From the IMG/VR virus record IMGVR_UViG_3300033068_000989, positions 32,163 to 96,162 of that record: a DNA stretch of 64,000 bases. One strand, given 5' to 3'. Positions 765 through 60,980 of this stretch are shown one piece after another. Below the pieces are notes generated by a model. The model was not told the origin of the DNA and did no database searches. It was given only the letters and a program-made list of their open reading frames with translations. This DNA is from a virus (lineage: Duplodnaviria; Caudoviricetes). Numbering within the stretch: position 1 is the first letter of the stretch; every line of letters begins with the position of its first letter. The position numbers and the translations under genes were made by a program.

Positions 765-1675
765 TTAGTACAGCCAAAAAAGTATCTCTAAAAAATAATT
801 ATACAGGATATACTATAGAAGGAGATACTGATTTAATATCTGTTGAGTATGAAGTAGCGTGGGATCCAGGTACAACAGAAAGACGATTTGTTTGGGAATA
901 TTTAACCCATGAAGACTTTATACGATATACAGAGTTTCCATCACACAGTGTAATACTAGAAGGTATAATCAAAGCTTGTAAAGAATATTTTCCATTTTTT
1001 GAAAACTTTTCAGTAGACGGTGGAGGAATTGAAGCTAATATACCACCTATGTGTTTAACCTTACATAAATCTGATGAAATACAAGAATATTTAGTAGAGT
1101 ATATGGATTTTCTAAAATACTTAGGATTTTCTGACGAATCATTATCTGCTGGAATTCATGTAAATGTTGATATGAGTATGTTGGGTAGAACTCAATTAGA
1201 CAAATCTGAAACTGTTAGAAAATTATGCCAATTTGCTTTTGATAATATTGATTTTGTCATTAAATTCTCTGGTAGAAAAAGAGGTGCTCAAATATTATCT
1301 GATATGTACCATTTCCTAGGAGATGTTTATAATTTAAAACCAAAATCTGAAAATTTAAGAGAATTTTTAATACATAAAAATCTATTAGCAGATTTCTTTA
1401 TGTCAGATAATACTTCATCACATCTAAGTCTATTTAATATGCATGCAGGTAAATGTGGTAGAGATGCCTTAGAAATTAGATGGTTTGGTACAACTTTAGA
1501 TATAAAAGAATATTATCAAATATTAGAATTTGCAGTAAGTCTAGTTCGTTTTAGTAGAGAATCTACTTTTGAAAAACTATCAGAATCAGATTATATACAA
1601 TATGTTAAAGAACATCCAACTATGTATAATAATCTCTTAGACAAATTAATCACTCATATTAATAGAATAAGATGA
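761..1675 (+). CDS. Putative COOH-NH2 ligase (amidoligase) family protein
   Basis: SVEYEV, DGGGIE, SAGIHVNV and LEIRWF match the amidoligase/glutamine-synthetase-fold pattern; adjacent to GATase and a second amidoligase. Confidence 0.65.
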   Translation: MISTAKKVSLKNNYTGYTIEGDTDLISVEYEVAWDPGTTERRFVWEYLTHEDFIRYTEFPSHSVILEGIIKACKEYFPFFENFSVDGGGIEANIPPMCLTLHKSDEIQEYLVEYMDFLKYLGFSDESLSAGIHVNVDMSMLGRTQLDKSETVRKLCQFAFDNIDFVIKFSGRKRGAQILSDMYHFLGDVYNLKPKSENLREFLIHKNLLADFFMSDNTSSHLSLFNMHAGKCGRDALEIRWFGTTLDIKEYYQILEFAVSLVRFSRESTFEKLSESDYIQYVKEHPTMYNNLLDKLITHINRIR

Positions 1676-3114
1676 CAGAAATTGAGAAAAAAGCTAGGGA
1701 ATCTCTAGATAATTCCATACCTTTGTATAAAAGTTTAAGTAGATTGGAATTAATTAAATTTAAAAGAGCTAATCCACTGCCAAAAGTTGAACCAAAATTT
1801 GGTATAAATATAGAAATAGAACTTTGGTCTATTATAAATGACGCAGAATTAGCTGAAGTTATGTCAGCTATGGACATACCAGTTACTACCAGTTCACAAT
1901 ATACACAAAGTCCATATTCAAAATGGTACATGCATAGTGATCCCTCTATTAGAGTAGATCACGATAAAATACAAAAACTTTTACAAGAAAACAAATATCC
2001 TATAAAAATCAGCTTACAAAACGTACAATACAACCAATCAATCCCTGTTTTAGGTTGTGGTCGTAATGAAACACATATAAAAGAAGAGTATATTCCAGAA
2101 GATATTAAAAAAATAGGAAAAGAATTAAACAAATTTCTTATACAACAAAAAGAAGAATTGATAAAGAAATTTGGTAACGTTTATTCTACTGAAGCTTTTA
2201 AGTTAGTTCAAGAAAAAAAATTAACTACTGAAGTACCTGTCGAAAACAATGAAGACTGTATTTCAGAGACTTCATCAACCCAATCTTCGAAATCAAATAT
2301 AGCTTATAAATATTCTGCACAACCTATGGAGTTATCTTCTCCAACTATATATAACTTTAAAGATTTAAGAAAACTTTTCTACCTATTTAAACACAAAGGA
2401 TTTAAAAGAACTCCATTAATATTTATAGGACCTTCATGTGGTTTACATATTACATTTTCTATACCACCAGATTTACCTTTTTCAGAAAAAGATAAATATA
2501 TACAAAAACTCGTGGAAGTTTTTGTATCACTTGAATCACAAATAATGGACATAGTTCCTGATCACAGAAAACGTAATACATACTGTAAACCTTTGCACAC
2601 ACATACAGATCTAGAAACTGTTATTAGATATTCTAAACAAGAGAAATATTCTTCTTTATATGTCGGTAAAGATAGATTTGCTAAACAAGAATTTAGATTT
2701 GTAAATGCTACTTCAAATGTATCAGAAATTGAAAATTGGATATTATTTTTACAGCAAGTAGTAGAATATACTTTAACTGTATTAGATGAAAAAATATCAA
2801 GATTACATTTATTTGATGTAATTACTCACCCACTTTTACAAGATTGGTTTTTAACACGTAGGGAATTTCTAACAACTAAAGCTAAAATAGACATCGTAGA
2901 TTCTAAAACATTGACTACTACACCATATTTATTAACTAAACAACTAAGAGATGAAGAATCCAAAAGAAAACAACAATACAAACTTGCCGAAAAAAATAGA
3001 GCAATGAATAGTAGATCTTATAAAAGAGAATCAATTCTTAATATTAAGAGATCGAAGAACGCACAAAGCGCTCGGCGTAGGGTACGGAATGGACGGAATA
3101 ACACAGGTAACTAA
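1672..3114 (+). CDS. Putative amidoligase (Amidoligase_2-like)
   Basis: FGINIEIE, SDPSI, MELSSP, SCGLHITF, RNTYC, KYSSL, EFRF motifs. Confidence 0.78.
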   Translation: MTEIEKKARESLDNSIPLYKSLSRLELIKFKRANPLPKVEPKFGINIEIELWSIINDAELAEVMSAMDIPVTTSSQYTQSPYSKWYMHSDPSIRVDHDKIQKLLQENKYPIKISLQNVQYNQSIPVLGCGRNETHIKEEYIPEDIKKIGKELNKFLIQQKEELIKKFGNVYSTEAFKLVQEKKLTTEVPVENNEDCISETSSTQSSKSNIAYKYSAQPMELSSPTIYNFKDLRKLFYLFKHKGFKRTPLIFIGPSCGLHITFSIPPDLPFSEKDKYIQKLVEVFVSLESQIMDIVPDHRKRNTYCKPLHTHTDLETVIRYSKQEKYSSLYVGKDRFAKQEFRFVNATSNVSEIENWILFLQQVVEYTLTVLDEKISRLHLFDVITHPLLQDWFLTRREFLTTKAKIDIVDSKTLTTTPYLLTKQLRDEESKRKQQYKLAEKNRAMNSRSYKRESILNIKRSKNAQSARRRVRNGRNNTGN

Positions 3115-3349
3115 TAAGCATGGAAAATTGCTATATTATAAAAATGCTCGTATTTCAGGAGAATGAAAAGATGGTATCCCTAATGGACAATGACTACCAA
3201 AAGTAGTAGGGGATACAACACCATCTGAAAAAGTATATGTGGAAAAGTTCATCCCAAGAAATCATAAATTAATTGACAATCAGGTAGCTGAATACCTTTG
3301 GGTAGATAAGGCGATGAGAATGTTATATACGCCTAACCGTAATTATTAA
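3089..3349 (+). CDS. 86-aa MORN-like protein containing two in-frame TGA codons (absent from ORF track)
   Basis: MDGITQVTNKHGKLLYYKNARISGE*KDGIPNGQ*LPKVVG...PNRNY; TGA at 3164-3166 and 3191-3193; GE(W)KDG.PNGQ resembles a MORN repeat; fills an otherwise empty gap. Confidence 0.65.
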
Positions 3350-3410
3350 TTACGCTTGCTGAAAGTTAAATGGATTAGGTAGTATGATTTTTATTATTTA
3401 AATAATTAAT

Positions 3411-4100
3411 ATGTTTAATTTTACTAAAGTTGATGCAACATTAAACCGACTTAAAACAAAGTTTAATCAACTTAAAATAAACGAGTTTAAATGGATATCT
3501 GTTAGTATAAACATAATATTGATAATCACTATTATGCATCTTTACACAGATATAATGAATATAAAGCAACAAACAAAAGAAGATATTGATACTTTAACAG
3601 AGACACTTGATTATTATCAATGTAATGTCGATTCTTTATCTAACTTAGTTACATATAAGCATACTGTTAAAACAAAAGTATCTAAACAGACACAGAAGTC
3701 ACCACAAAAAATAAAGGAATCAACAATTTTACAGTTTGATTCTTTTAAGTGGTATAATTCAGTTGATGTTTACTTACATAAATCCATGTGTAAAGCACTA
3801 GATCAATATTCTGGTCCAGACAACATTTTAATCACATCTATGCGAAGAAAATGGTGTAAGCATTCTAAACACTTCACAGGAGAGGCAGTTGATATACAAC
3901 TAAATCAAAGTGGTAGAAATATGTTAGAATGGATGATATCAGAGGAAGGTAAACTTTGGTTAACGGATCACAACCTATTTTTCTATATAGAAGACAAGCC
4001 CGGTTCGTCAAAATTAAAGGAATTTAGAGAGAGATTTAGTGAATATATTTTTGAAAACAAAAATGCTACTGGTTTGCATATTCATTTAGCTAGACTTTAA
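3411..4100 (+). CDS. Membrane-anchored M15-like zinc peptidase (possible cell-wall hydrolase)
   Basis: N-terminal hydrophobic helix and coiled coil; ITSMRR...SKHFTGEAVDIQ...HIHLA gives the HxxxxxxD...HxH zinc-ligand pattern. Confidence 0.65.
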   Translation: MFNFTKVDATLNRLKTKFNQLKINEFKWISVSINIILIITIMHLYTDIMNIKQQTKEDIDTLTETLDYYQCNVDSLSNLVTYKHTVKTKVSKQTQKSPQKIKESTILQFDSFKWYNSVDVYLHKSMCKALDQYSGPDNILITSMRRKWCKHSKHFTGEAVDIQLNQSGRNMLEWMISEEGKLWLTDHNLFFYIEDKPGSSKLKEFRERFSEYIFENKNATGLHIHLARL

Positions 4101-4429
4101 TGGTAGGAAAAATTGTAACATTATACTGGGATGAATTTAACACTGAGATTATTGGGAAGGCCAAGTTACTTAAATTAATAAGTAAAGGCCTTCCTATAAT
4201 CTTACCATCTGACACTGATTACGAATCTCCAACAGATAAGCAATTAGTATATAGATTTGATAAATATAAAGTACAATTTGTAGATGGCTATAAAGATCTT
4301 ACTGCTTCTGGTATTTATAAAGTACGTATACTACACAATATCGGTAAGGTAGCAAATAAAGAAAAATTTGAATTTAAAAACTTACCAAAAGACTCATTCT
4401 TAACTGTAAATGGTAAAGAAATTTTTTAA
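4100..4429 (+). CDS. Hypothetical protein
   Basis: 109-aa ORF coupled to the upstream gene (TAATG). Confidence 0.7.
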   Translation: MVGKIVTLYWDEFNTEIIGKAKLLKLISKGLPIILPSDTDYESPTDKQLVYRFDKYKVQFVDGYKDLTASGIYKVRILHNIGKVANKEKFEFKNLPKDSFLTVNGKEIF

Positions 4430-4443
4430 TTAAAAAACAAATA

Positions 4444-4827
4444 ATGGAAAACTCAATCCAAACTTTTTTAGAAAATCCAGAATATCAAAAATTAATGGTA
4501 GGTGTTGGTATATGCTTTGGTATTCTACTTATATTTTACATGGTATATAAAATTATGGTTAATCATGATCGTTCTACATCTTCCAAAGATAAAAAAACTA
4601 AGAACACTCAAGACTATAACAAATTAATTTTGAATGAATTGACTTCAAAAATAGAGCAATATCCTAATATGGATTTTGGAAACATTCTATTAGTTACAGG
4701 CATATTACAAACTGGCATATCTAAAACTGGTACTAAATATATTCTTAATCCAACTGGAGTTTCATCTAAGAAAATGTTTTCTCATATAAAATATGTAGTA
4801 CGTGATAAAGAATTAAGTGAAGATTAA
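4444..4827 (+). CDS. Hypothetical membrane protein
   Basis: One N-terminal hydrophobic helix (LMVGVGICFGILLIFYMVY); A-rich leader. Confidence 0.7.
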   Translation: MENSIQTFLENPEYQKLMVGVGICFGILLIFYMVYKIMVNHDRSTSSKDKKTKNTQDYNKLILNELTSKIEQYPNMDFGNILLVTGILQTGISKTGTKYILNPTGVSSKKMFSHIKYVVRDKELSED

Positions 4828-4842
4828 TAATAAAATTGTCAA

Positions 4843-6801
4843 ATGGATTTAACTAAAATACGCTTAGTAGCACCGTATTCAGTAGAAGGTATTGATAATG
4901 CTACTGTATGAGAGGCCTATAAGTATTTAAAACAATGTAAGTATATTACAGTAGATACAGAAACAGCTACTCACCCTTTATATACAAACATAGGATCTGG
5001 ATTAGATCCTTATACATCTATGCTAATCTCTATACAATTAGGAGATAAGGATAGACAATTTGTAATAGATACGAGATATGTTTCAATAGGTCCTTTAGCA
5101 TCTATATTAAGCTCAACTAAAATTGTGAAATTAGGTGTAAATTTAAAGTTTGATTACAAAATGATAAAACACCATTTAGGAATAGAGCTTAATAATATAT
5201 ATGACATAGGTTTAGCAGAGTTAATACTAACTAACGGATTAAATAAATCGTGGTCACTAGCAGCTATTGCTAAAAAATATTTAGATATAGATCTAAATAC
5301 TAAACAACTTTCTTTATGGGAATCCTATGTATCTAAGGATACAGTAAAACTTTATGAGAATTTAAAATATGAGAATCTTACTTTAGATCTAATAAAGTAC
5401 TCAGCTACAGATATTATTATTCCATCTCTAGTATATCCCAAAATACTTAAACAAATACGTGAAACTAATCAAGCTAAAGTAATAAAGTTAGAAAATGATT
5501 TCACTACTATAGTAGCAAAATGGGAATTAAAAGGAATTTATCTAGACGCAGATAAATGGTTAAATGTACTAGCGGATAATAAATTAGAATTATCTAAAGT
5601 AGAACAACAACTAAACCTGTATTTAATATCCCAAAAATTAGAACATTATTTAGGCATAAACTGGAACAGTTCTAAACAAGTCAGTGCTTTATTTAAGGAA
5701 TTAGATATACCTATACAAGTAATAGATTCAAAAAATAGTGTAGGAGATATCAAAGTTTATAAAAATACTGTGGGTCAAGCACATATAAAAAAGTTCAAAA
5801 GTAAGTTTGACATCTTACCATTATATCTGTCATATAAAAACTTATATAAAGCTATTAGTACATACGGATTTAAGTTTCTAAGTAATGTAAACCCTATATC
5901 TAATAGAATACACACAGACATTTATCAAATTAAGAGTACTGGTAGGATATCCTCATCAAGTCCTAATCTACAAAACATTCCTAGAACGGCTGATTTTAGG
6001 TCGTGTTTTATAGCACCAAAAGGAAAAACTTTTATTATATGTGACTACTCTGCTCAAGAGTCTAGAATTTTAGCTGACTATGCTAAAGAACCAGCAATGA
6101 TTGATTTTGCTATCAACGGTGATGGTGACTTTCACTCATTGACTGCTAAACAAATGTATGGAGAAGTAACACCAGAAAATAGGCCTATAGCTAAAATGTT
6201 AAATTTTGCTATTGCATATGGTGCATCAGCACATAAGATATCTGATCAAGCTCAGATTCCTACTAAACAAGCTCAAGAATTAATTGACCAATTCTTTAAG
6301 GCTTATCCTGTATTGAAACCATATTTTGAAAAAGTACAAAGACACGCATTAGGTAAAGGGTATCACATTACTGATGCTTATACTAAACGAAGATGTTATA
6401 TAGAGAATTTTGATAAGTATAAAACAGTAGAAGCTTACATCAAACATTATCAAAACTACTACCCATCTATAAAATTACCTTCAAAAATATGGTCAATATA
6501 CTTTAAAATGAAAGGCGAAATTGAAAGAGATAGTCAGAATTATCCTATTCAAGGGACTGGCGGTAGTATGACTAAATTAGCAGCAGTTTTAATAGATAAA
6601 GCTATTATAAAATTAGGTTGGAAAGAGAGAGCATATATCGTAAATATAATTCACGATGAAATTGTTGTAGAATGTGACACATCTATAGCAAATAAACTAT
6701 CTAAAATAGTGTCTAAATGTATGCAAGAAGCTGGTAAAATATTTATAAAAAGCGTACCGATGCCAGCAGAGGTACATATTTCTGAATTTTGGAAAAAATA
6801 A
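4843..6801 (+). CDS. polA: DNA polymerase family A (3'-5' exonuclease + polymerase), 652 aa with one in-frame TGA at 4909-4911
   Basis: ExoI motif ITVDTET...GLDPY lies upstream of the tracked start 5020; ExoII NLKFD; TGRISSSSPNLQNIP; motif A DYSAQESRI; motif B RPIAKMLNFAIAYG; motif C IIHDEI. Confidence 0.93.
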
Positions 6802-6805
6802 ACAA

Positions 6806-7870
6806 ATGAATTCAAATGTTACAGGTGTGGTAAATGATCACTCCATAATAATAATTTTAGGATTAGCCGTAGTAATTGGGCTTATTTACTGGATTCATAT
6901 TACCATGAAAAAGAATCCAGATATGACATTTGGGGATATAGTAAATGCAAAAATTGTTACTGAAAGAGTATCAATATTTATAATTACTTGTTTTATCATT
7001 AATATAACAGAGGCTATTATGGCTGCCTCAATAACTCCAATAGGAGAAACTGCCCCTAATCCTTTATCTAGGATTATGTCACACATGATAATAGCTATCG
7101 CAGGTATTACTTCTGGGCTATCTGTTCCCGATTTATTTAGAGCTACTATAGCTAAAGATTCTAAACACAGAGGTTATGCATTTATATTATTTATATTTGC
7201 ATTTATAGGTACATTTGGATTTCCTTATGGTAACCTTATTCTTATTGCAGGAGGTTTAAAAGAATATCAATTATTAAATATATACATATATGGATTATTT
7301 CCATGGAATGATATGGCAGCATATTATGCAAGTGTAGGATTACCAGTAAACTTTTCACCTATTGAACATATGTCATATGTATTAGTGACCTCTACATTCA
7401 TGACATTTGCTCACTACTTTTTAGTATTATTTGATGGCATTCATATGATCTATCATAATAAAACAGTATTAAATATAAAATTAGAAAACAAGGGTAAAGA
7501 TGGTAAGGATAAAGATGGTAAGTCTAAAGATTCTACTAAACCCAAAGATTTTGACCCTATTACCAAACTTATAAAACGATACTTTAATACTGGAGATTCT
7601 ACTAGTGAAGTTACAAATTGGATTACAAATGCACACAGAGTACATGATAACATGGATACTGGAGACAAAGCAAGACTATCTTCCAATATAGCTGCAATAG
7701 TATCTGAAATGGAAAAACTGGATAGAGATATAGCCAACTTAGATAAAGAAGAAAAATCAGCTAAAAAGTTAGAATTTAGAAACAAAATAAAAAGCTTCTT
7801 TAGAGAATCTACGAAGAATGGTAAAGGATTTGGTCTTACACTACCTAATGTAAGGGAGTTGGGAAACTAA
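6806..7870 (+). CDS. Multi-pass membrane protein with charged C-terminal domain
   Basis: About five hydrophobic segments then a K/D-rich linker; ends TTG GGA AAC TAA. Confidence 0.8.
   Translation: MNSNVTGVVNDHSIIIILGLAVVIGLIYWIHITMKKNPDMTFGDIVNAKIVTERVSIFIITCFIINITEAIMAASITPIGETAPNPLSRIMSHMIIAIAGITSGLSVPDLFRATIAKDSKHRGYAFILFIFAFIGTFGFPYGNLILIAGGLKEYQLLNIYIYGLFPWNDMAAYYASVGLPVNFSPIEHMSYVLVTSTFMTFAHYFLVLFDGIHMIYHNKTVLNIKLENKGKDGKDKDGKSKDSTKPKDFDPITKLIKRYFNTGDSTSEVTNWITNAHRVHDNMDTGDKARLSSNIAAIVSEMEKLDRDIANLDKEEKSAKKLEFRNKIKSFFRESTKNGKGFGLTLPNVRELGN
7861..7867 (+). promoter_or_regulatory. -1 ribosomal frameshift slippery heptamer G GGA AAC
   Basis: X XXY YYZ in the correct phase directly before the stop of 6806..7870; the -1 frame is open for 210 codons. 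Confidence 0.7.
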
Positions 7871-8493
7871 ATTTCCCCTTTACTTACAAATGTTCTAATG
7901 GATATAATTGTGAATCATTAGATGGAAAAACATGTGAGGCAGCAGAATGCGGTGCATCGAGATGTTTGTTATGTAATAAATCTATAGTAACTGTACCTGG
8001 ACAAGTTTGTAAAAACTGTGTAAATGTGTGTGACGCATGTGGTAGATCTGTTCCTGTTCCGTATGAATCTTTAACTAAGTATAAAGGGGATTATCTATGT
8101 GCAGATTGTTTAAACGTTAACAGATATTATGATAATATAAATGCTGACTATAAAATAAAGAAATGCACAATTTGTGGCAGTACATTTGAAACTCAAGATA
8201 ATGAGCATGTCTGCACAGATTGTGCGTCTGTAGCAATATGTGCCAATTGTGGTGATATGGTAGGTAGATCTAATTTAACACGACAAGGGTACTGTGAAAA
8301 TTGCTCCTCTAGAATGAATATAGACGTATGTGTAGTACCTCATTGCAATAGATCGAGTACAAATACACAAGGAATATGTCATTATCATTCATATGAATAT
8401 ATACTATGTCCTATATGTAACATAACTCCTATCAAAAAAGATACGGATATTATATGTGAAGGATGTATAAAAGCAGAAGATTTATATGACTAA
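7861..8493 (+). CDS. Cys-rich multi-zinc-finger domain, probably expressed as a -1 frameshift extension of 6806..7870
   Basis: Frame open from 7849 with no ATG near its start; Cys-rich pattern begins at ~7891, upstream of the tracked TTG 7966; many CxxC pairs. Confidence 0.7.
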   Translation, partial: GKLNFPFTYKCSNGYNCESLDGKTCEAAECGASRCLLCNKSIVTVPGQVCKNCVNVCDACGRSVPVPYESLTKYKGDYLCADCLNVNRYYDNINADYKIKKCTICGSTFETQDNEHVCTDCASVAICANCGDMVGRSNLTRQGYCENCSSRMNIDVCVVPHCNRSSTNTQGICHYHSYEYILCPICNITPIKKDTDIICEGCIKAEDLYD

Positions 8494-9691
8494 ATCTGAA
8501 TTACAAGAAAAAATTATAACTAAATACATGACTGAGCTTCCTAGTAGGGGTACAATTATACTACCAACTGGTGTTGGTAAAACAAGAGTAGCTTTACAAA
8601 TAGTTGAAAATCTATTTGCTAAAAAACTAATTAAAAGTTGTCTTGTTGTTACCCCTACTACAGTCTTGAAAGACGATTCTTGGCCAGCCGAAATTAAGTT
8701 ATTGAATTTACAAGAATTAAATATAACAATAGAATGTAAGCAAACAGCTTATAAGTTTAAAGATAAATATGATATAGTAGTAATAGATGAAGTTCATTCT
8801 GCTCTATCTTCTGTACATGGTAAAGTGTTAAACATACCATGTACATATATGCTTGGATTAACTGCTACCTTACCAGAACATGATGAAGATCATTTAGAAA
8901 TTTTGAAAAAAAGATTACCAGTATTCTTCTCGATAAGTTTAAAAGAATGTGTGGAACAAGGAATAGTACCAAGTTTTAAAGTATTTAACTTAAAAGTTAA
9001 ACTAAATAAAAAAGAACGAGCTAAATATTCTATCTATGATAAAATGTTTAACCAAGCTACAGCAGAGTTGCAAACTTATAAAAATAAAATTCCAGAATAT
9101 AACGAATTATCTGTATTTGATTTAGCACAAAAAGCTTCTTCAATTAAGACACATCCCTTACACAAAATTGGTAAGTCATATTGGTCAGCCATGTCTATGA
9201 GAAAATGGGAATGTTATAGAGCAGAATCTAAATTAGAAACAACAATAGAAATAATTAAAAAATATCCCGATAAAAAGTGGATAGTTTTCTCAAAAGAGAT
9301 TAAATTTGTAGAAGAATTAACTCAAAAATTACTAGATATAAAAATAAATGCGTTAAAATATCATTCACAAATGAAGGATATTGATAGAAAATTAGTATTG
9401 GAATTAATTTCTAAACCTAAATATAAAGTATTAGTCTCCGCAGAAGCACTTAATGTAGGATATAACTTACCTGACTTGGATGCCGCCATTTGTGCATCAG
9501 GTGTTTCTACAGAATTAGTGGGTATACAAATGGTTGGACGTATTAATAGATATAAAAAAGGAAAAATACCTGTAATGATTAATTTAGTTTGTGATAATAC
9601 ACAAGAAATGAATTGGGTATCTAAACGCACAGAAAATATGTCACCAATTTGGACAGATAATTTAAATAAAATAAATTTAACAAAATGGTAA
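8486..9691 (+). CDS. Superfamily 2 DExH helicase
   Basis: LPTGVGKT, VVIDEVH, LGLTAT, LNVGYNLP, QMVGRINR. Confidence 0.92.
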   Translation: MTKSELQEKIITKYMTELPSRGTIILPTGVGKTRVALQIVENLFAKKLIKSCLVVTPTTVLKDDSWPAEIKLLNLQELNITIECKQTAYKFKDKYDIVVIDEVHSALSSVHGKVLNIPCTYMLGLTATLPEHDEDHLEILKKRLPVFFSISLKECVEQGIVPSFKVFNLKVKLNKKERAKYSIYDKMFNQATAELQTYKNKIPEYNELSVFDLAQKASSIKTHPLHKIGKSYWSAMSMRKWECYRAESKLETTIEIIKKYPDKKWIVFSKEIKFVEELTQKLLDIKINALKYHSQMKDIDRKLVLELISKPKYKVLVSAEALNVGYNLPDLDAAICASGVSTELVGIQMVGRINRYKKGKIPVMINLVCDNTQEMNWVSKRTENMSPIWTDNLNKINLTKW

Positions 9692-10710
9692 TATCTAATT
9701 ATGCTACAAGACAAAAATTAGCTAACTATTTAGAAAAAGGCATACTTCCAAAAGATCTACAAGATCATAGAAAAGGAGAATATCTAGAAGATTTCTGTCT
9801 TTTTTGTGGATTGGAGCATGATAACATTGTATTTACTAAGTCATCTTATGGTGGAACAGGACTTGATGTACATATTTGTGAAGAATGTTTTAATGTTTTA
9901 GAAACAAAAAATATAGGGTATCAAAAAATGTTAAATTTTCACACAGAATCAAATAGATTAAACAATCTAAAAGCCTATCAAAAAACTAAAACTATCGCTA
10001 CAGATAAATACTCATTTACAAAAGGAGGTGAAAATGAAGGTAAATGTATATTTTGTACTGAAGAGTGCATAGGTGTTCCGTGGACATTAGAATTGCCTGT
10101 AGAAGATAACCAATATTATTATGGTGGAGATACATCTGTATGTGATAGATGTTATGAATGGCTAATATCAAATAACGTAACTTTACAAGCTGACGCATTC
10201 ACAGATAAATGCCCTAATTGTGAAAAACAATATGGAGTTTCGGTGCAAATTTGGAAAATACGTGAAACACTTAACTCACTAGGGGCGCACATATGTCCAC
10301 ATTGTTATTATGAAACACATAAACCACTGTCAAATGTAGTGGAATATATAAATTGTGAGGTATGTGACCTAAGTATAGTACATGAAAAAACCCTATATGT
10401 ATCTAAAAATACACCTACAATATTTAAAAAGTACTGTGGTAAATGTGTATTAGCATCATATAGACGAGAAGAGGAAATAATAATAAAGCATATAATTAAT
10501 AATGTATATTTGAATATAGATCTACATGCTTATGAATACAGAATTCTATATTATTCTACAGAAAATAAAGAAATGCAGTTAATATTAGAACATAAATGCT
10601 CTAATTCTACACCCCCATTTCTTATGGCTCACCAAGCTTCTACAATGGTTTATAAGCTATTAGAAGAAAACAAAATTCCAAGACAACCACAACAGGGATT
10701 ACTTTTCTAA
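9685..10710 (+). CDS. Cys-rich zinc-finger protein of unknown function
   Basis: About eight CxxC pairs. Confidence 0.75.
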   Translation: MVISNYATRQKLANYLEKGILPKDLQDHRKGEYLEDFCLFCGLEHDNIVFTKSSYGGTGLDVHICEECFNVLETKNIGYQKMLNFHTESNRLNNLKAYQKTKTIATDKYSFTKGGENEGKCIFCTEECIGVPWTLELPVEDNQYYYGGDTSVCDRCYEWLISNNVTLQADAFTDKCPNCEKQYGVSVQIWKIRETLNSLGAHICPHCYYETHKPLSNVVEYINCEVCDLSIVHEKTLYVSKNTPTIFKKYCGKCVLASYRREEEIIIKHIINNVYLNIDLHAYEYRILYYSTENKEMQLILEHKCSNSTPPFLMAHQASTMVYKLLEENKIPRQPQQGLLF

Positions 10711-10744
10711 TAATCCTTTTGAATATAATCTATAAAAATAAAAG

Positions 10745-11311
10745 ATGATTGATGAGAATATAATGAACAAAATTATTGCATATGATTTAACACTAGATCA
10801 AGCATTTATACTATACTGTAAATCGTCAGGAGCTAAATTTCTTACATATTATAGGCCACCTGCTAATGAGTACGATAAATTAATATTCTATGAGTACTTA
10901 GGTATTAATAGAACACTTACAAAAAAAGGTGTAGATTTATGTAAAGAATTATTTTCAGAAGGTAATTATGACAAAAGTATAGACGATGCATTTGAAATTT
11001 GGTGGCAAACATATCCAAGTAATGATGCTCATGGAAATTACTCTGCAAGAAGATTGATTAGATCAGGATCTAAACAAAAAATAAAAGCACTTTATATTAG
11101 TGCAATAAATAAATATAAACTGTCTACAGATGATATGCTAAAGTCTCTGAAAAATGAAATTGAATTTAGAAAGAACGCATCTACTAAAGATAATACCCTT
11201 TCTTTTATGCAAGCTCCCACTAAATGGCTAACTGAAGAATCTTATTTATTAAATTACGGCTCATCTGAAAATACCTCTAAATTTTCAGAGTATGGAAAGA
11301 GCGTCAACTAG
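10745..11311 (+). CDS. Putative replication initiator / helicase-loader-like protein
   Basis: FEIWWQTYP...FMQAPTKWL pattern typical of phage replication-initiator C-terminal domains; directly upstream of DnaB. Confidence 0.5.
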   Translation: MIDENIMNKIIAYDLTLDQAFILYCKSSGAKFLTYYRPPANEYDKLIFYEYLGINRTLTKKGVDLCKELFSEGNYDKSIDDAFEIWWQTYPSNDAHGNYSARRLIRSGSKQKIKALYISAINKYKLSTDDMLKSLKNEIEFRKNASTKDNTLSFMQAPTKWLTEESYLLNYGSSENTSKFSEYGKSVN

Positions 11312-12299
11312 AAAGGGATTAAAAGTAGAACATTATTCAGAGAAAATAGAACAGGCTAAAGTGTTTATTCGTAAAAGAATGAATAATGAAGCTCCATCTT
11401 TAAAAACATCATTTAAAAAACTAAACGATGCATTATTTGAAGGATTTGAATGGAATAGAATTGTAACAATTGCTGGGTTAAGTGCCAGTGGTAAGAGTTT
11501 ATTATTATCACAAATACGTAGAGATGTGGTAGACTATAACCCTAATGAGAAACTGAATATCTTAGCATTTGAAATGGAGATGCTAGGGGTCGATCAAGTT
11601 TCGCGAGATATTTCTTCTAAGACTGACTTAACTACTCGAGAACTTTACTCTGCTGGTTCTAAGTTAACAGAACAACAATACGACACCGTATGTAAAACAG
11701 CTGATAAAATGAAATATTATCCTATATTCATTGTGGATGATGTAGGAACTGTAGATGAAATTGTTCATACGATCCTCAATTTCGTGGAGGAGAACAAACT
11801 AATCGAAGAAAATAGAGGACTAATTTGTACGTTTGACCACAGTTTATTAGTGAAAGGTACAGTAGGTGAAGATCAAGAGAAATTAATTATAGATAAGTTA
11901 TACAAGACATTAATTCAATTAAAGAAATATTTCGAAACCATAAAACTAAAATCTTTATTCATAGTTCTATCACAGTTAAACAGGAGTATTGAAGAACCTC
12001 AAAGGATTACTAATCCAATGTTACATTACCCTACCAAAAATGATCTATTCGCATCCTCAGCTGCATTTTATTGTTCAGATTATGTGATAATTACACATAA
12101 ACCAGCAGGTATAGAAGGACTTGGCTCATATTATGGGCCATCTAGAGGAGAGGATTATCCATACGGATTGCCAGTATTTAATCCTAAAGATCCTCAACGT
12201 GCTATGATTTATTGGCACATAATTAAAGCAAGGTTTTCTTCATCACAGATCCTTATGATGGTGGAGAATTTTAAACACTCTAAAATAGAGGAGTATTAA
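11292..12299 (+). CDS. dnaB: DnaB-like replicative helicase (RecA-fold domain)
   Basis: IAGLSASGKS, FEMEM, FDHSLL, LSQLNRSIE, IIKAR. Confidence 0.9.
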   Translation: MERASTRKGLKVEHYSEKIEQAKVFIRKRMNNEAPSLKTSFKKLNDALFEGFEWNRIVTIAGLSASGKSLLLSQIRRDVVDYNPNEKLNILAFEMEMLGVDQVSRDISSKTDLTTRELYSAGSKLTEQQYDTVCKTADKMKYYPIFIVDDVGTVDEIVHTILNFVEENKLIEENRGLICTFDHSLLVKGTVGEDQEKLIIDKLYKTLIQLKKYFETIKLKSLFIVLSQLNRSIEEPQRITNPMLHYPTKNDLFASSAAFYCSDYVIITHKPAGIEGLGSYYGPSRGEDYPYGLPVFNPKDPQRAMIYWHIIKARFSSSQILMMVENFKHSKIEEY

Positions 12300-12317
12300 C
12301 TAATTAAATAAACTAAA

Positions 12318-12428
12318 ATGAGTTTATCAGATTTTATAACACTTGTAGTAATAATTAATTTTGCTACAGTGTTTATCCGAATATGACTACTTAAAGTCAC
12401 AAAATGAATAAAAGAATTATTGGTATAG
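12318..12428 (+). CDS. Possible 36-aa membrane peptide with in-frame TGA codons
   Basis: MSLSDFITLVVIINFATVFIRI*LLKVTK*IKELLV; TGA at 12384 and 12405; A-rich leader. Confidence 0.35.
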
Positions 12429-13078
12429 TAGGTAAATCGGGAACAGGTAAATCTACTTCAATAGAAACACTTGATCCGAAATCTACTTATATTATTAATG
12501 TATTAGGTAAAGCCTTACCATTTAAAGGATCTGAAAAATTATATAACACAACAAATAAAAATATAGCAGATATTTCATCTTACGACCAAATCATAACTGT
12601 ATTAAAAAAGATATCAGACGACAGGCCTGATATTAAAACAGTAGTAATAGAAGATGCCGGATATATAATGTTCATAGAAGAGTTCAGAAGAGCTAATGAA
12701 ACAGGGTATAGCAAATTTTCGGACATGGCGAATCATATGTATCAAATAATGACTACTGCTAAACATTGCAGGGAAGATTTAAATATAGTTTTTGTATTTC
12801 ACGAAAACTTAGAAGTAAAAGATGGATATGGTCTAATAAGAGAAATCAAATTAGGTGGTAAAATGATTAAAGAAAAATTCTCTCCTGAAGAAAATCTAAC
12901 AATGATATTGTATACAAAGGTAGAGTATGATCCAGTTGCTAAACAAAGTAAATATTCATTTATCACTAATACTACGGATGTATATCCGGCTAAATCACCG
13001 AAAGGTATGTTCGATACATTCGAAATACCTAACGACCTTAATTACGTAATTAACAAGGCTAACGAATATTATTCGTAG
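12404..13078 (+). CDS. AAA-family ATPase (Sak4/AAA_24-like)
   Basis: GKSGTGKSTS Walker A, VVIEDAGY, PAKSPKGMF...IPNDL. Confidence 0.85.
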   Translation: MNKRIIGIVGKSGTGKSTSIETLDPKSTYIINVLGKALPFKGSEKLYNTTNKNIADISSYDQIITVLKKISDDRPDIKTVVIEDAGYIMFIEEFRRANETGYSKFSDMANHMYQIMTTAKHCREDLNIVFVFHENLEVKDGYGLIREIKLGGKMIKEKFSPEENLTMILYTKVEYDPVAKQSKYSFITNTTDVYPAKSPKGMFDTFEIPNDLNYVINKANEYYS

Positions 13079-13114
13079 TCTTTATTGAATATAGTGACTA
13101 AAAATTAATTCACT

Positions 13115-13693
13115 ATGCAAACTAATCTATTTGGAAAAGACCTCTTAAATAAAATGAATACAGGAGGAAATGGCACAAAAATACCGAAAGGTATTCACTC
13201 TAAAATTAAATTGAAGGATATCGAAATAACTGACACTTATGTCGATATATGGTTCGAGAATCCTGAAGATGGCAAGACCATAAATAAACGACTATGGATC
13301 CCAGATATAAACAAAACAACTGCTAAAGAAGGGATGTCCGTTCAGGAAACGATTGAACTTAGAGTACACCAAGCTCTTTATCATCTACTAGATCTATCAC
13401 AACATATGATAGGAACAGAAACAACTGCTAATATTCCTATAGGAGATTTAAAAAGTACTGCGGCAGCTATTAGAACACTACTAATGCCGTACAGTAATAG
13501 CAAGTTTCTAAATCTTAAAGTAGTTACAACACAAGACGGTAAATATCCAGAGATTTCTAACTTTGTAGGCTATCTAGAACCTTATGTAGAAGGTAAAGAA
13601 CCTACTCTTGAATTTAAACCATCGGAATTATCTAGGATGCATCAGTCATCTATTCCAGATATGCCCGCATCAGATACAACAAATATAGTATAA
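13115..13693 (+). CDS. Hypothetical protein, possibly ssDNA-binding
   Basis: Position between Sak4-like ATPase and primase; beta-rich N-terminus; function inferred from context only. Confidence 0.45.
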   Translation: MQTNLFGKDLLNKMNTGGNGTKIPKGIHSKIKLKDIEITDTYVDIWFENPEDGKTINKRLWIPDINKTTAKEGMSVQETIELRVHQALYHLLDLSQHMIGTETTANIPIGDLKSTAAAIRTLLMPYSNSKFLNLKVVTTQDGKYPEISNFVGYLEPYVEGKEPTLEFKPSELSRMHQSSIPDMPASDTTNIV

Positions 13694-13694
13694 C

Positions 13695-14744
13695 ATGAAA
13701 GGAAAAGATCTGTTTGAATCAATTTTAAACGAACAAAATATTTTGTTACGTATTAGTGATGAACAGATATTTTCTAGGTATATATGTAAAGTTCAAAACT
13801 CATTGTCTTCTCCATTTAGAGTAGATAAGAAGAACTCTTGTGGATTCTATAAGAATAATAAGGGTAGGTATATCTTGCATGACTTCTCTACTGGACAAAG
13901 TTGGGGAGCAATATATGCTGTAATGGAGAAGACTAAAATGAGCTATGCAGAAGTTCTTAAGATGATAAACAAAGATTTTGAATTGCGGTTAGATACTCTT
14001 AATCCTGTAAATAAAGTCAGAGAACTTCAAATAGAAGAAACAAAACCAGTAAATAACATATCATATAGTATTAAACCATACGAGAAAAAAGAAATAGAAT
14101 ATTGGGAACAATACGGAATTACTTCTAATACATTATTGAAATATGGTGTTTACTGTGTGCAGTCTGTACAGTTTGCAAATTCTTCTTGAAGAGCTACTAA
14201 AAATAATCCTATATTTGTTTACACCACAAAAGATCCAAAAGTATTTAAACTATATCGTCCATTATCAACTAATCAAAAATGGGCAGCAAAGACTAATAGG
14301 TATGTTATATGGGGGCTAACCCAATTACCTAATAAAGGAAGTTTATTAGTAATAACTAAATCATTAAAAGATGTAATGGTATTACATGAGTTAGGAATTC
14401 CAGCAATTAGTCCAGATTCTGAAGTAATTAATATTCCTAATAATATAATTAAGGAACTAAAAAAACGATTCAAGTATGTAGTAAGTATGTATGATTACGA
14501 TACAGCTGGTATAGCAGCTGCAACTAAATTAGATATACACTATATGTTTCTATTTAAAACTAAAGATATTTCAGATTATTATCAGAAATATGGTAAGTAT
14601 AGTACGTACAGAGTACTAAAAAAACTAATATCAAAATCTTATCATAGACATGAAAAATTCTTATTTCACCAAAACTTTATCAGACCTAGCCGACAAAATA
14701 ATAGGAAGTTTAGATTGGGATTCCAAAGAGATATACCCTTCTAA
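13695..14744 (+). CDS. dnaG: DNA primase (DnaG/TOPRIM), 349 aa with in-frame TGA at 14187-14189
   Basis: SPFRVDKKNSCGFY N-domain, EYWEQYGI, then *RATKNNPIFVY...KLYRP...LVITKSLKDVM...YDYDTAG; tracked ORFs 13695..14189 and 14376..14744 are one frame split only by TGA. Confidence 0.9.
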
Positions 14745-14880
14745 AGAAAATGTATTTAATATTTTAGACGATTTAAATAGATATAAATCTAAAGTTATAA
14801 TCATTGGTCAGGATCCGTACTACACACCAAACATGGCTACTGGCAGAGCATTTGATGTACCTGTAGGTACTACAAAACTT
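14650..14880 (+). pseudogene. ung: Uracil-DNA glycosylase family 1, N-terminal fragment
   Basis: IYPSKENVF...KVIIIGQDPY...ATGRAFDVP; similarity stops just before the expected PPSL motif. Confidence 0.85.
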
Positions 14881-14926
14881 AAACACAGCACTGCACCCTG
14901 CCTTGCGGCAAACGTGTGTTATGGGC
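14870..14926 (+). repeat. attC-like site 1 (right half only)
   Basis: Ends GTTATGGGC (14918-14926); left arm missing; acaaaactt at the ung junction also occurs in the loop of site 5. Confidence 0.6.
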
Positions 14927-14984
14927 TGCCGTTCTTTTTCGATATAGCTCTGGGAGGGCTTTGCAAAACCCACAATTAAATAAA

Positions 14985-15278
14985 ATGGTAGAAAACCAAA
15001 ATTTCGGACAAGCTATTGAAGCCTTAAAGCAAGGTAAGAGAGCAGCAAGACAAGGATGGAATGGAAAGGGAATGTTTCTCTTTTTGTTGCCAGCAGGAAC
15101 AGTACCAACCAAAGCAATTCACGACCCTGCATTAAGGGAAGTAATTGAGCAAGAAATTGGTGGAGAAACATTTGAAGCATTGGGAAGTATCCGAATGTTT
15201 ACAGCCGACAAAAAGATTTTGACTGGTTGGCTTGCTTCTCAAACTGATATTCTTTCAGAAGATTGGGTTATCCTGTAA
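14985..15278 (+). CDS. tad2: DUF2829 / Tad2-like anti-defence nucleotide sponge (cassette 1)
   Basis: NFGQAIEALKQGKRAARQGWNGKGMF...GWLASQTDILSEDW; ATG 14985 after an A-rich leader preferred to the tracked start 14916. Confidence 0.8.
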   Translation: MVENQNFGQAIEALKQGKRAARQGWNGKGMFLFLLPAGTVPTKAIHDPALREVIEQEIGGETFEALGSIRMFTADKKILTGWLASQTDILSEDWVIL

Positions 15279-15291
15279 AAATTGTGGGTTT

Positions 15292-15321
15292 CGTAGGACG
15301 GTCTTTCGGGGTCGTCTTACG
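15292..15321 (+). other. 13-bp hairpin with TTCG loop after the Tad2-like gene
   Basis: cgtaggacggtct-ttcg-gggtcgtcttacg, four G-T pairs, no U-tract. Confidence 0.6.
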
Positions 15322-15324
15322 GTT

Positions 15325-15391
15325 GCCCATAACGTTTTGGCTATGCGTTCGGCTGACGATAGGAAGCTGACGTATAGGTGTTGTTAACTAC
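15325..15391 (+). repeat. attC-like site 2
   Basis: GCCCATAAC...ctatgcgt[t]cggct / agctgacgtatag...GTTAACTAC; stem with one bulged T. Confidence 0.8.
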
Positions 15392-15424
15392 TGTGCGACT
15401 TTAATAATTAAAAATATAAATAGA

Positions 15425-15844
15425 ATGAAAAACTTACTTTGGTTAGATGATATTAGAAACCCTTTTTTAAATGAAGAGGGTAAAGTACCAACAGATAAAA
15501 ATGGTGAATACTACAATATAAACTGGGTTTTAAATTACGAACAGTTTGTAAAATGGATTGAAATTTTTGGGTTACCTGATGCAATTTCTTTTGACCACGA
15601 TTTAGCAGATGAACATTATACCCCTGAATACTTTTGGGATAATTACGAGGAAAGTAAAAAGTTTCAAGAATGGCGTGGCAAAAATTACCAAGAAAAAACA
15701 GGAATGGACTGCGCTAAATGGCTTGTGGATTACTGTATGGATAATAAAAAGAAATTGCCTGAAATATACATACACTCTGCAAATCCTGTTGGTGCGGATA
15801 ATATAAAAGGGTTGTTGGATAACTTTGCTAAGCATTGTAGTTAA
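15425..15844 (+). CDS. Cyclic-phosphate-processing receiver (REC)-like protein (cassette 2)
   Basis: LWLDDIRNP, ISFDHDL, KTGMDCAKWL, IHSANPVGADNI; stop codon inside GTAGTTAAC. Confidence 0.75.
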   Translation: MKNLLWLDDIRNPFLNEEGKVPTDKNGEYYNINWVLNYEQFVKWIEIFGLPDAISFDHDLADEHYTPEYFWDNYEESKKFQEWRGKNYQEKTGMDCAKWLVDYCMDNKKKLPEIYIHSANPVGADNIKGLLDNFAKHCS

Positions 15845-15931
15845 CAGGGCATTTACGCTGCCCCGTAATTGAAAAACAAAAGTTGAACAGCGAATTGTCC
15901 GCAGGGGTAGCGTAAATGCCTTGTTAGCGGA
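15837..15931 (+). repeat. attC-like site 3
   Basis: aacagggcatttacgctgcccc / ggggtagcgtaaatgccttgtt, 22-bp stem with two G-T pairs; ends GTTAGCGGA. Confidence 0.85.
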
Positions 15932-15947
15932 TGGTGCGGTAAATTAA

Positions 15948-16160
15948 ATGAAAATGGTAATTGAAAAAGAAATTAAAGTTGGAAGCAAATACAGATTTGT
16001 TTCACAAAGCATTGACGAAGTAGTAACTATTACAGAAAGTCCCATAAAAAATAGTAGAGGCTTTTTGGAATATGGAGCAAGAAACAAAGATGGTATTTAT
16101 CGCATTTGCTTCAATAACGAACTATTCAAATTGGAAATGTCAGATAGCACTTGCCGCTAA
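15948..16160 (+). CDS. Small hypothetical protein (cassette 3)
   Basis: 70 aa; stop codon inside GCCGCTAAC. Confidence 0.7.
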   Translation: MKMVIEKEIKVGSKYRFVSQSIDEVVTITESPIKNSRGFLEYGARNKDGIYRICFNNELFKLEMSDSTCR

Positions 16161-16243
16161 CGGACGGTAGGCAGTTTGGCGACAGTAGCCGAAGTGTTGG
16201 CATTGTGCGGTCGGGCAGCTTGCACAAAACCGCTGTTAGCTGC
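16153..16243 (+). repeat. attC-like site 4 (degenerate stem)
   Basis: GCCGCTAAC...GTTAGCTGC; inner pairing is broken into short hairpins (ttggc/gccga, ttgtgc/gcacaa). Confidence 0.65.
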
Positions 16244-16284
16244 TGCTGCGGTAGATTTAGTAGAAACTTAATTAAAAAACGAAA

Positions 16285-16845
16285 ATGGGAAGTATAAAAG
16301 GACAAAAACATAATCCATACATTGAGGGAAAGTATGCACACTTAAACCCGAATGATGTGGTATTTACGCCCGATTGGTTGGCGAAGCAGATTTGTGGGAT
16401 GTTTGATATTGATGGCAAAGTATTAGAGCCGTGTAAAGGTGAAGGTGCATTTTTGAAATACCTGCCTGAAAATACAGATTGGTGCGAAATTGCAGAAGGT
16501 AGGAATTATTATGACTATAACGAGAAAGTAGATTGGATTGTAACAAACCCACCTTACAGCGATTACAACCGATTTTTAGAACACTCATTTGCATTGGCAG
16601 ACAATATCGTATTACTTGTGCCTGTTGCAAAAATGTTCAAGAGTTTGGGAACTTTGAAACTGATATTTGAATATGGTGGGTTTGTATCAATACATACTTT
16701 ACCAGCAAGTAAGGCAGGTTTCCCATTCGGGTTTCCGTGTGCTGTTTATTATTTGAAACGTGGTTACAAAGGAGAAACTAAAATTGAAATGTTGCAATGT
16801 ATGGATAATGTTCAATCGGAGTTGTTCAGTAGCAGTTGCAGCTAA
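16285..16845 (+). CDS. Small amino (N6-adenine-type) DNA methyltransferase (cassette 4)
   Basis: VFTP, VLEPCKGEGAF (motif I), IVTNPPYS (motif IV); stop codon inside GCAGCTAAC. Confidence 0.85.
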   Translation: MGSIKGQKHNPYIEGKYAHLNPNDVVFTPDWLAKQICGMFDIDGKVLEPCKGEGAFLKYLPENTDWCEIAEGRNYYDYNEKVDWIVTNPPYSDYNRFLEHSFALADNIVLLVPVAKMFKSLGTLKLIFEYGGFVSIHTLPASKAGFPFGFPCAVYYLKRGYKGETKIEMLQCMDNVQSELFSSSCS

Positions 16846-16960
16846 CGTTTTGCGTATATACGCAGTGCAACGAAAACTTAATTTGAAACACAAAACTTGA
16901 AAATATATGAAAAATTTAATTAAAAAACTGAAAGCATTGCGTATATACGCAGTTAGCAGT
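16838..16960 (+). repeat. attC-like site 5 (loop contains a start codon)
   Basis: GCAGCTAAC gttt tgcgtatatacgcagtgc ... gcattgcgtatatacgca GTTAGCAGT. Confidence 0.85.
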
Positions 16961-17056
16961 AGTTGTGAACATTCCTTTTATAGATATGGTATTAGATACG
17001 GGAAAAATTTATATAGATGTAGTCATTGTGGAAAAGAAAAAAGCAATTACTGCTAA
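16907..17056 (+). CDS. 49-aa zinc-ribbon-like peptide starting in site 5 and finishing in cassette 5 (absent from ORF track)
   Basis: MKNLIKKLKALRIYA|VSSSCEHSF...YRCSHCGKEKSNYC; CxH...CxxC; stop codon inside ACTGCTAAC. Confidence 0.7.
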   Translation: MKNLIKKLKALRIYAVSSSCEHSFYRYGIRYGKNLYRCSHCGKEKSNYC

Positions 17057-17290
17057 CGTGCCGAGTGTAAACGTTAGTAAATTAAAATTATAGCACAAAT
17101 GACAAAAAAAGAACTGGCAAAGTGGCTTCACGATAATTACGAAGCAGTTGCAAAAGAACAAAATTGGAATACACAACAAAGTTGCAAGGTAGAGTTTAAC
17201 ACTTTGCCTGATGCTAATAAACGCACAATGATTGAGATAGCAGATAGGCTTCTTAATTTTAATTTATTGCGTTTACACTTTGTTATGAAA
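17049..17290 (+). repeat. attC-like site 6 with a ~160-nt protein-coding loop
   Basis: agtgtaaacg[t]tagtaaattaaaatta / taattttaatttattgcgtttacact, ~26-bp stem with bulged T; ends GTTATGAAA. Confidence 0.8.
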
Positions 17291-17380
17291 TCGTTGCCCG
17301 ATGATTACGAAATTTATCAAAAAGCACACGAGATTGACGAAAAAGACTTTGCTCAATGGATGTACGAACTATTTAGGTAG
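17099..17380 (+). CDS. Hypothetical protein: N-module inside site 6 fused to truncated cassette 6
   Basis: ORF crosses GTT (17282) in frame as Val (...RLHF|VMKS...); ends at the right junction with ung. Confidence 0.7.
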   Translation: MTKKELAKWLHDNYEAVAKEQNWNTQQSCKVEFNTLPDANKRTMIEIADRLLNFNLLRLHFVMKSLPDDYEIYQKAHEIDEKDFAQWMYELFR

Positions 17381-17496
17381 AGCGTATACTATCTAACTCT
17401 AAAAATTGCGGCACTTTCCCGCCATTTAGTGAGATAAATTGTTTTGAACTTGCAAATATTACATTAAAAATATTAAAAAAACCTATATTATGATAG
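17377..17496 (+). pseudogene. ung: Probable uracil-DNA glycosylase C-terminal fragment
   Basis: VERILSNSKNCGTFPPFSEINCFELANITLKILKKPIL-TGA-TAG resembles the UNG tail F...N.F..AN..L.....PI.W-stop. Confidence 0.6.
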
Positions 17497-26991: not shown

Positions 26992-27452
26992 TAATTAAGA
27001 TTTTGTAATTTATATAAAGATGAATAAATAAGTTCTTCAATTATATCTAATTGACTAAGGATATAGCTATCCTTAGTAGTTCCTCTAAATTCAGTAATGT
27101 ATTCTAATTTATACTTTAAATACTCTACAGCATCAAGTTCTTCATGTATTTCTATAGGAGTATAGCCAGATATAATACCATACTTACCTTGCCAAGACTC
27201 TACTAGAGAATCGACTAGATCTACTATGTCTTTATATAATGTATCTAATGCCATATGTGTAACATAAGAAGTTGTTTTAAAATGTTGTATATGCATATTA
27301 TCTCTCATTTCAAACAAACAAGAAACAAGACTGCCTATAGTATACTCACTGTACGATTCTTCAGGTTGTTCATAACTTGTATTTATTTGTTTGTCGTTCT
27401 GTACTTGACCTAAGTTATCTGTTTCTTCAAAGCTATTTGCTAATTGGTACAT
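26991..27452 (-). CDS. Ferritin/Dps-like four-helix protein (DUF5856-like)
   Basis: HIQHFKTTSYVTHMALDTLY..IVDLVDSLVESWQGKYG...LYKL. Confidence 0.75.
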   Translation of the reverse strand: MYQLANSFEETDNLGQVQNDKQINTSYEQPEESYSEYTIGSLVSCLFEMRDNMHIQHFKTTSYVTHMALDTLYKDIVDLVDSLVESWQGKYGIISGYTPIEIHEELDAVEYLKYKLEYITEFRGTTKDSYILSQLDIIEELIYSSLYKLQNLN

Positions 27453-27461
27453 ACTTATATT

Positions 27462-29138: not shown

Positions 29139-29149
29139 ACTACATTAGT

Positions 29150-30838: not shown

Positions 30839-30839
30839 A

Positions 30840-50099: not shown

Positions 50100-50107
50100 A
50101 ATTTATC

Positions 50108-52255: not shown

Positions 52256-52258
52256 CGT

Positions 52259-60859: not shown

Positions 60860-60865
60860 AACATA

Positions 60866-60873: not shown

Positions 60874-60923
60874 ATTAAAATAAAAATTATTATAAAATAC
60901 TATATTTATAGTAGTATTAAAAC

Positions 60924-60956: not shown

Positions 60957-60980
60957 TATGTTTAGATATATCTACAGAAT

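Follow-up and report, generated by a model that had tools for sequence, protein, structure and literature searches.

Stop-codon recoding in phages is now detected by the gain in coding density, and it is described as a late-gene feature that is driven by suppressor tRNAs; in the known recoded phages, late genes drift towards TGA. Leaky reading of UGA also has a classical example, the A1 readthrough protein of phage Qbeta. Block-wise recoding and "dual-coded" phage genes have been published (PMC7886860; 10.1101/2021.08.26.457843; 10.1101/2022.06.29.495998), with a Sup-TCA tRNA in only 3 of 17 phages of the code 11/code 4 kind (10.1101/2022.06.29.495998; PMC7886860; 10.1101/2021.08.26.457843). 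We analyzed a stretch of 64,000 nucleotides (hereafter, the window), bases 32163-96162 of the 96,162-bp single-contig IMG/VR virus record IMGVR_UViG_3300033068_000989, with respect to in-frame TGA codons in three genes of its replication module: a small gene of an unnamed phage protein family, the gene of a family A DNA polymerase (polA), and the DNA primase gene. Comparison of orthologous codons shows that UGA is decoded as Trp in replication-module genes of a wastewater crAss-like clade, because relatives have TGG or W at the column of the primase TGA, and because TGA and TGG replace each other in the small gene.

The orthologous loci were fetched with flanks from close relatives, whose polA is 56-72% identical to that of the window; L027 and L028, with 40% identity in polA, served as outgroups. 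An exhaustive HMMER search with the small protein yielded 122 clusters of homologues, all stand-alone proteins of 100-140 amino acids (aa). Their N-termini start upstream of the column that corresponds to position 3005; therefore, the gene start was placed at 2951, and a third in-frame TGA was found at 3005. The original prediction had described a "MORN-like" open reading frame (ORF) starting at 3089; its two TGAs (3164 and 3191) were confirmed, whereas the third TGA had been missed, the start was wrong, and the MORN label is not supported, as the protein has no match among Pfam families (E <= 0.01) or PHROG families. The amidoligase gene (1672-3114) and the small gene overlap by 164 nt (2951-3114) at the 3' end of the former, in different frames, and the ORF that occupies the 296-nt "gap" downstream of the amidoligase shows codon-periodic conservation that begins just past 3005. 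A fusion of the amidoligase and the small ORF by a +1 frameshift was also considered; it was rejected, since the homologues are stand-alone proteins with N-termini upstream of the 3005 column.

Orthologues of the small gene in L018, L021, L022, L023 and in contig C13 of the metagenome-assembled genome (MAG) G001 (G001:C13) have 3-5 TGAs each, and across the six genomes TGA and TGG are exchanged at four or five Trp columns. For example, position 3299 is TGG in the window and TGA in three relatives. In the protein family, the columns at 3005, 3164, 3191 and 3299 contain W/R, variable residues with some W, W/Y/F, and W, respectively. TGA constitutes 19 of the 23 Trp codons (83%) of the small gene in five lineages, compared to 3 TGA versus ~190 TGG (~1.6%) in the other replication genes, and the difference is highly significant (p = 1.6e-20). 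The share of 83% equals the A-fraction of the other NNA/NNG codon pairs (0.80-0.88). The ratio of nonsynonymous to synonymous substitution rates (dN/dS) of the small gene is 0.07-0.17 and synonymous sites are saturated, as in the neighbouring gene; despite this saturation, there is no TAA, TAG or frameshift in any lineage. Judging from these substitutions, the small gene is under purifying selection and, accordingly, is translated. The AF2 model of the small protein has a pLDDT of 92; comparisons of this model yielded E > 0.2 with Foldseek versus PDB and Z <= 2.9 with VIA-align, so that none of the solved structures matched it clearly.

The primase TGA at 14187 is present, as originally predicted, and a single continuous PHROG primase match (residues 6-286) runs across it at codon 165. 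The corresponding column contains TGG in L018, L019 and L022, TGA in L023, and W in the outgroup L027. The expectation that homologues would align Trp to the in-frame TGAs was borne out for the primase and the small gene, but not for polA. In polA the predicted TGA at codon 23, upstream of ExoI, does exist; however, this column in close relatives is AAT, AAA, AAG or ATG (N/K/L/M), and further out E, Q or S. This TGA is, according to the alignment, in a variable, non-Trp column and is specific to the window lineage. Under code 11, the first canonical start of polA is M60 at 5020. The Pfam exonuclease match covers residues 21-205, and the DTET motif of ExoI (residues 38-41) is located between the TGA at 4909 and that start; thus, the ExoI motif is lost without readthrough. 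In relatives, polA is an uninterrupted protein of 652 aa.

Single TGAs are found in the primase of two lineages and in polA of the window lineage only, and the sequences that follow both are conserved and collinear with relatives. The relative G001:C13 has neither of them. In both polA and primase, the TGA has the appearance of a tolerated change that is specific to certain lineages, not of a designed replication gate, and the earlier idea that opal suppression gates replication is not supported, given this sporadic distribution.

The TGAs are not assembly errors. The polA TGA at 4909 is retained in L017, a contig from another sample that is 99.5% identical, and a contig from run X3 of another study, which covers positions 2900-14800, has the same base; it differs from the window at 24 positions, none of them in any TGA. 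In four further assemblies the small protein is encoded only "with TGA=W". Metatranscriptome contigs that cover the region were unable to show transcription or editing. Coordinates of the features are summarized in the table.

Table. Features of the window that bear on the meaning of TGA (positions of the window)
Feature	Coordinates	Strand	Remarks
Last two TGA-ended genes of the upstream early block	33..1675	+	GATase 33-764, ORF 761-1675; ATGA overlaps at 762 and 1673
132-aa gene, unnamed phage protein family	2951..3349	+	Sense TGA at 3005, 3164 and 3191; TGG at 3299
Family A DNA polymerase with 3'-5' exonuclease (polA)	4843..6801	+	652 aa with readthrough of TGA 4909-4911 (codon 23)
Hydrophobic micro-ORF, 22 aa, conserved	12318..12386	+	Ends in TGA 12384
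DNA primase (N-terminal domain and TOPRIM)	13695..14744	+	349 aa if TGA 14187-14189 (codon 165) is Trp
Weak UDG C-terminal remnant, then TGA-TAG	17389..17496	+	TGA lies within the ATGA that starts a GGACT-like ORF, 17490-17999
Late block (virion, packaged RNA polymerase)	23029..63984	-	No in-frame TGA, no TGA stop

The roles of TGA divide the genome into three zones. The genome has seven TGA-terminated genes in all, each of them an ATGA overlap, and they are confined to positions 20312-33837 of the genome, which lie upstream of the small gene; the two that fall in the window had been recognized as such by the original prediction. The TGA-ended early genes number seven or eight per genome, their ATGA overlaps are conserved, and the sequence tails after TGA "stops" are not conserved in relatives. 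In the replication block, sense TGAs are sparse and there are no TGA stops among ORFs of at least 50 aa. In the late genes, genome-wide (33 genes, 18,099 codons, 145 TGG), TGA occurs neither in frame nor as a stop, which extends the earlier observation on this region, and the late regions of L034 and L035 have the same pattern. In the window lineage and in L018, L021, L022 and L023, 14 of the 59 genes upstream of the small gene end in TGA, compared to none of the 83 genes downstream (p = 1.7e-6). The complete relative G001:C13 has the same three-zone layout, and its four sense TGAs are all in the small gene. In the outgroups L027 and L028, TGA stops are found throughout and sense TGA is absent.

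In the window genome and its relatives, sense TGAs are confined to replication-module genes and never occur in late genes. The original prediction of an inverted pattern is correct to the extent that this distribution is the inverse of the usual published one; it does not extend to the earliest plus-strand block, which still has TGA terminators. Because this block keeps them, the genome follows the known order, in which a standard-code early block comes first. Of 28 sense TGAs, 23 are followed by A; of 61 TGGs, 18 are.

A fragment of a more distant genome, L026:1-3696 (GC 39%), has TGA at ~29% of Trp codons in five of its six replication-module genes, including polA, and two of these TGAs align with TGG of the window. 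Judging from its codons, L026 may represent a further stage of recoding. The earlier suggestion of an early stage of code change fits this gradient, from none in L027 and L028, through ~1.6% and one recoded gene in the window clade, to ~29% in L026.

Two of the six sites cited in the original prediction, 12384 and 17491, proved to be wrong. The first had been read as a sense codon in a small membrane ORF. The orthologues of this micro-ORF in L018, L022 and L023 have TAG at this very position, directly after "...IRI"; therefore, TGA 12384 is, by alignment, the equivalent of a stop, and readthrough at this codon would yield just 14 more residues. The micro-ORF is the one exception to the absence of TGA stops in the replication block. 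The second site had been taken for the terminal Trp of UDG; it belongs to the ATGA start overlap of the ORF 17490-17999, and UDG itself is split by ~2.5 kb, with a C-terminal remnant (17389-17478) that matches at E = 0.3 only. The N-terminal part of UDG, at 14731-14859 within the disrupted region 14650-17496, matches residues 10-52 of the L022 UDG, and the ~2.5 kb inside UDG contain ORFs that include a cREC_REC-like protein and a partial methyltransferase.

Several observations concern the surroundings of the small gene. Five lineages share the octamer TGAATAGT (3005-3012) without any change, and the base that precedes it always gives an NTG codon in the amidoligase frame. Downstream of the gene, there is a conserved non-coding element (3350-3405) followed by an AT-rich run, and this element is found in L018, L022 and L023. 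It occurs once only in the window, positions 3350-3363 show no recurrence above chance, and a scan for promoters and terminators gave a signal at the level of shuffled sequences only.

The whole record has a GC content of ~30% and a CheckV completeness of 95%. It is probably a circularly permuted whole genome, in which a capsid-like ORF spans the joined contig ends. Metagenomes that contain the window sequence came from wastewater, activated sludge and bioreactors in 13 studies. The genome belongs to Crassvirales (crAss-like phages) by its capsid type, a giant virion RNA polymerase gene, and two opposed modules. The giant gene is represented by a late ORF of 6419 aa; the assignment of the capsid type is based on relatives' genes, as PF23898 (Crass_capsid) was found in capsid orthologues of relatives. 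Searches of viral_contigs and of deposited phage records yielded distant polA relatives only, with up to 33% identity, and the best matches in deposited phage records include Bacteroides crAss-like phages. A TerL scan of metagenome_contigs found relatives at 39-44% only.

A GroEL-like chaperonin of 539 aa is encoded among the late genes (L024:12898-14517, minus strand, genome coordinates; PHROG E = 3.7e-144), and its nearest cellular homologues, at ~45% identity, are from Bacteroidota. In the relative L035, there is a weak Cpn10-like ORF near the GroEL-like gene. The large terminase (L024:9581-12898, minus strand) has 1105 aa with extra segments, and its orthologue of 1469 aa in L034 contains an intein and LAGLIDADG domains. 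The group I intron family RF00028 is matched twice in the late region outside the window (L024:4669-4925, minus strand, 73.6 bits, above the cut-off; L024:3553-3691, minus strand, 38.3 bits); both matches are located between late ORFs and probably split a structural gene. The Sak4-like gene of L018 (L018:17720-18819) and the DnaB gene of L023 (L023:13876-14965) are each represented by two ORFs and a gap, with no TGA involved; the interruption may be due to an insertion, intron or frameshift.

The MAG G001 is labelled Candidatus Dependentiae. Its contig C13 is a whole crAss-like phage genome of 103,683 bp, contig C76 has a homologue of the small gene with one TGA, and contig C1 has ~35 clustered tRNA genes; these look like low-GC phage contigs that were co-binned with a bacterium. 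Ca. Dependentiae was considered as a host and rejected: the prfB of the MAG is ordinary and other phage-like contigs are present, and the placement was read as a binning artefact.

We found no candidate for a decoder in the genome. ARAGORN, with default settings or with introns allowed, detected no tRNA; with relaxed thresholds, it yielded AT-rich junk only, such as a "tRNA-Trp" of 19% GC at genome positions 21985-22063. The Rfam search of the whole genome (E <= 1) found no tRNA, and the best match to the tRNA model alone had 8.4 bits. A hidden split suppressor tRNA was likewise not found by ARAGORN or Rfam, although the flanks of the group I introns were not checked for tRNA halves. The release-factor Pfam domains RF-1 and PCRF were both absent from the genome; tryptophanyl-tRNA synthetase was not searched for. 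Pfam scans of 20 early-block ORFs revealed nothing related to translation, and none of the tRNA hits of the G001 MAG is on contig C13. The search of the rest of the genome that had been proposed along with the original prediction, for a tRNA or a release factor, was negative on both counts.

The clade resembles the block-wise recoded code 4 gut phages in that it is crAss-like, probably infects a standard-code host, uses TGA for Trp, and has mostly "dual-coded" genes, and also in that a standard-code early block with TGA stops is followed by blocks that lack them. As in many TGA-recoded phages, there is no detectable Sup-TCA tRNA in the window genome. However, unlike in the block-wise code 4 phages, the sense TGAs are found in the replication module only, and late, structural and lysis genes have none; their use is too sparse for density-based detection; and one small gene is fully recoded in the clade, while its neighbours are almost not. 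The habitat, wastewater and activated sludge, also differs from that of the gut recoded phages. A comparison of genetic codes, suggested earlier, gave only a small gain: coding density is 0.918 under code 11 and 0.929 under code 4, below the published requirement of 5-10% (0.929 and 0.931, respectively, in G001:C13). Code 25, in which TGA encodes Gly in phages of Gracilibacteria/Absconditabacteria, is not supported, as the TGA columns here contain W, Y, F or R and not Gly. The clade is a minimal form of the known gut-phage code change, and possibly an early one.

There are also similarities to near-cognate readthrough by tRNA-Trp(CCA), including variants with a 4-bp anticodon stem, in which Trp is inserted and no dedicated suppressor tRNA is needed (PMC13092985). 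Such readthrough is sensitive to context and in competition with RF2, in agreement with the A that follows TGA here. In contrast to readthrough of the Qbeta A1 type, where a single UGA ends a complete ORF and the extension is optional, the UGAs of this clade are inside enzyme domains, with up to five per gene.

The explanation that we favour for the whole pattern, with a probability of about one half, is a soft switch of the code after early gene expression. UGA would be read by the tRNA-Trp of the host, or by an unrecognised phage factor that acts on host translation, and this reading would become effective only once the early block has been expressed. Because of such a switch, almost all genes would be written so as to be readable under both codes, and the small gene would be made only when UGA suppression is on.

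Several results weigh against a soft switch. Late genes contain no TGA at all, although efficient suppression from the middle of infection on should let TGA drift in, and a conserved micro-ORF of the replication block has a terminal TGA in place of the TAG of its relatives. TGA may still terminate translation at this micro-ORF, which would fit partial rather than full suppression, and the A-bias after sense TGA suggests that a still active release factor competes for these codons. Neither the tRNA searches nor the release-factor searches of the genome identified a decoder. It should be noted that the timing of the blocks is deduced from gene content and strand, and that the cross-lineage statistics are not fully independent. 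Taken together, three features lean towards partial suppression: late genes without TGA, a micro-ORF that ends in TGA, and the preference for A as the base next to sense TGA.

Partial suppression would also be produced by a host that decodes UGA leakily at all times, for example through a tRNA-Trp with a 4-bp stem (PMC13092985), and this explanation is nearly as good as the soft switch, although we hold it only tentatively. The phage would tolerate rare TGAs in enzymes needed in small amounts, the several TGAs of the small gene would limit its product to very small amounts, and the abundant late proteins would avoid TGA. The absence of a phage tRNA or release factor from our search results is expected under such leaky decoding, as is the finding that two sites 1.8 kb apart in one block have TGA in different roles, for Trp at one and in place of a stop at the other; the strong A-bias following sense TGA and the avoidance of TGA in both roles by late genes point in the same direction. 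The 4-bp-stem tRNA-Trp(CCA) constitutes 8.9% of bacterial tRNA-Trp genes, gives UGA readthrough in E. coli, and is associated with lower usage of UGA stops (PMC13092985). However, leaky decoding alone does not account for the loss of TGA stops across the replication block in five lineages, when the early block and the outgroups retain them. Moreover, under partial readthrough, four or five TGAs would reduce the yield of the small protein by orders of magnitude, yet its gene is under strong purifying selection, and the TGA share in this gene equals the neutral expectation.

That neutral-looking share in the small gene, together with replication and late blocks that are nearly free of TGA in both roles, would also be consistent with two kinds of hosts. 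The clade would alternate between standard-code hosts and hosts with UGA = Trp, and essential genes would avoid TGA for the sake of both; the small gene would be required in, or permitted by, the UGA = Trp host alone, and the lineages with TGA in polA or primase would be confined to it. Avoidance of TGA has been proposed as a route to infecting hosts of two codes (PMC10746230), and Patescibacteriota were recently reported to include a family with UGA = Trp (PMC13092985). We consider this explanation unlikely. The nearest cellular relatives of the GroEL-like protein, at ~45% identity, are standard-code Bacteroidota, Bacteroides crAss-like phages are among the best polA matches, and no UGA = Trp host is known for Crassvirales. 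Furthermore, TGA terminates seven or eight early genes in each genome, in ATGA overlaps that are conserved, and the A-bias after sense TGA would be needless where RF2 is absent.

The absence of any recoding, with the TGAs being nonsense mutations in decaying genes, assembly errors, or codons for selenocysteine or glycine (code 25), is very improbable, and decay or artefact is excluded: the polA TGA does lie at a variable column in one lineage and the adjacent UDG is truly disrupted, but the same TGAs are found in independent assemblies, there are no other lesions in the recoded genes and dN/dS is low, the stretches after TGA are conserved and collinear with relatives, the TGA columns contain W, Y or F and not G or C, and polA would lose the ExoI motif without readthrough. 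The decaying relic that had been named as a possible refutation of the original prediction is not what we observe, apart from the disruption of the neighbouring UDG.

A further and rather doubtful proposal is that the clade changes the meaning of UGA without a suppressor tRNA, through an early protein that disables or titrates RF2, or that reprograms the host tRNA-Trp. The TGA-dense small gene would then be a timer or a read-out of the switch, and the clade would represent the first step of a code change that reaches replication genes before late genes. If RF2 is disabled or the host tRNA-Trp is reprogrammed, host genes that end in UGA would be crippled.

The form of recoding found in this clade is missed by density screens. 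Standard annotation yields a shortened polA (593 versus 652 aa, with the loss of ExoI) and a split primase, and it overlooks the small gene. The related genomes, which range from no sense TGA to ~29%, provide a natural series for the analysis of how a code change starts, and the clade is useful for asking how the many recoded phages without a suppressor tRNA get UGA decoded.

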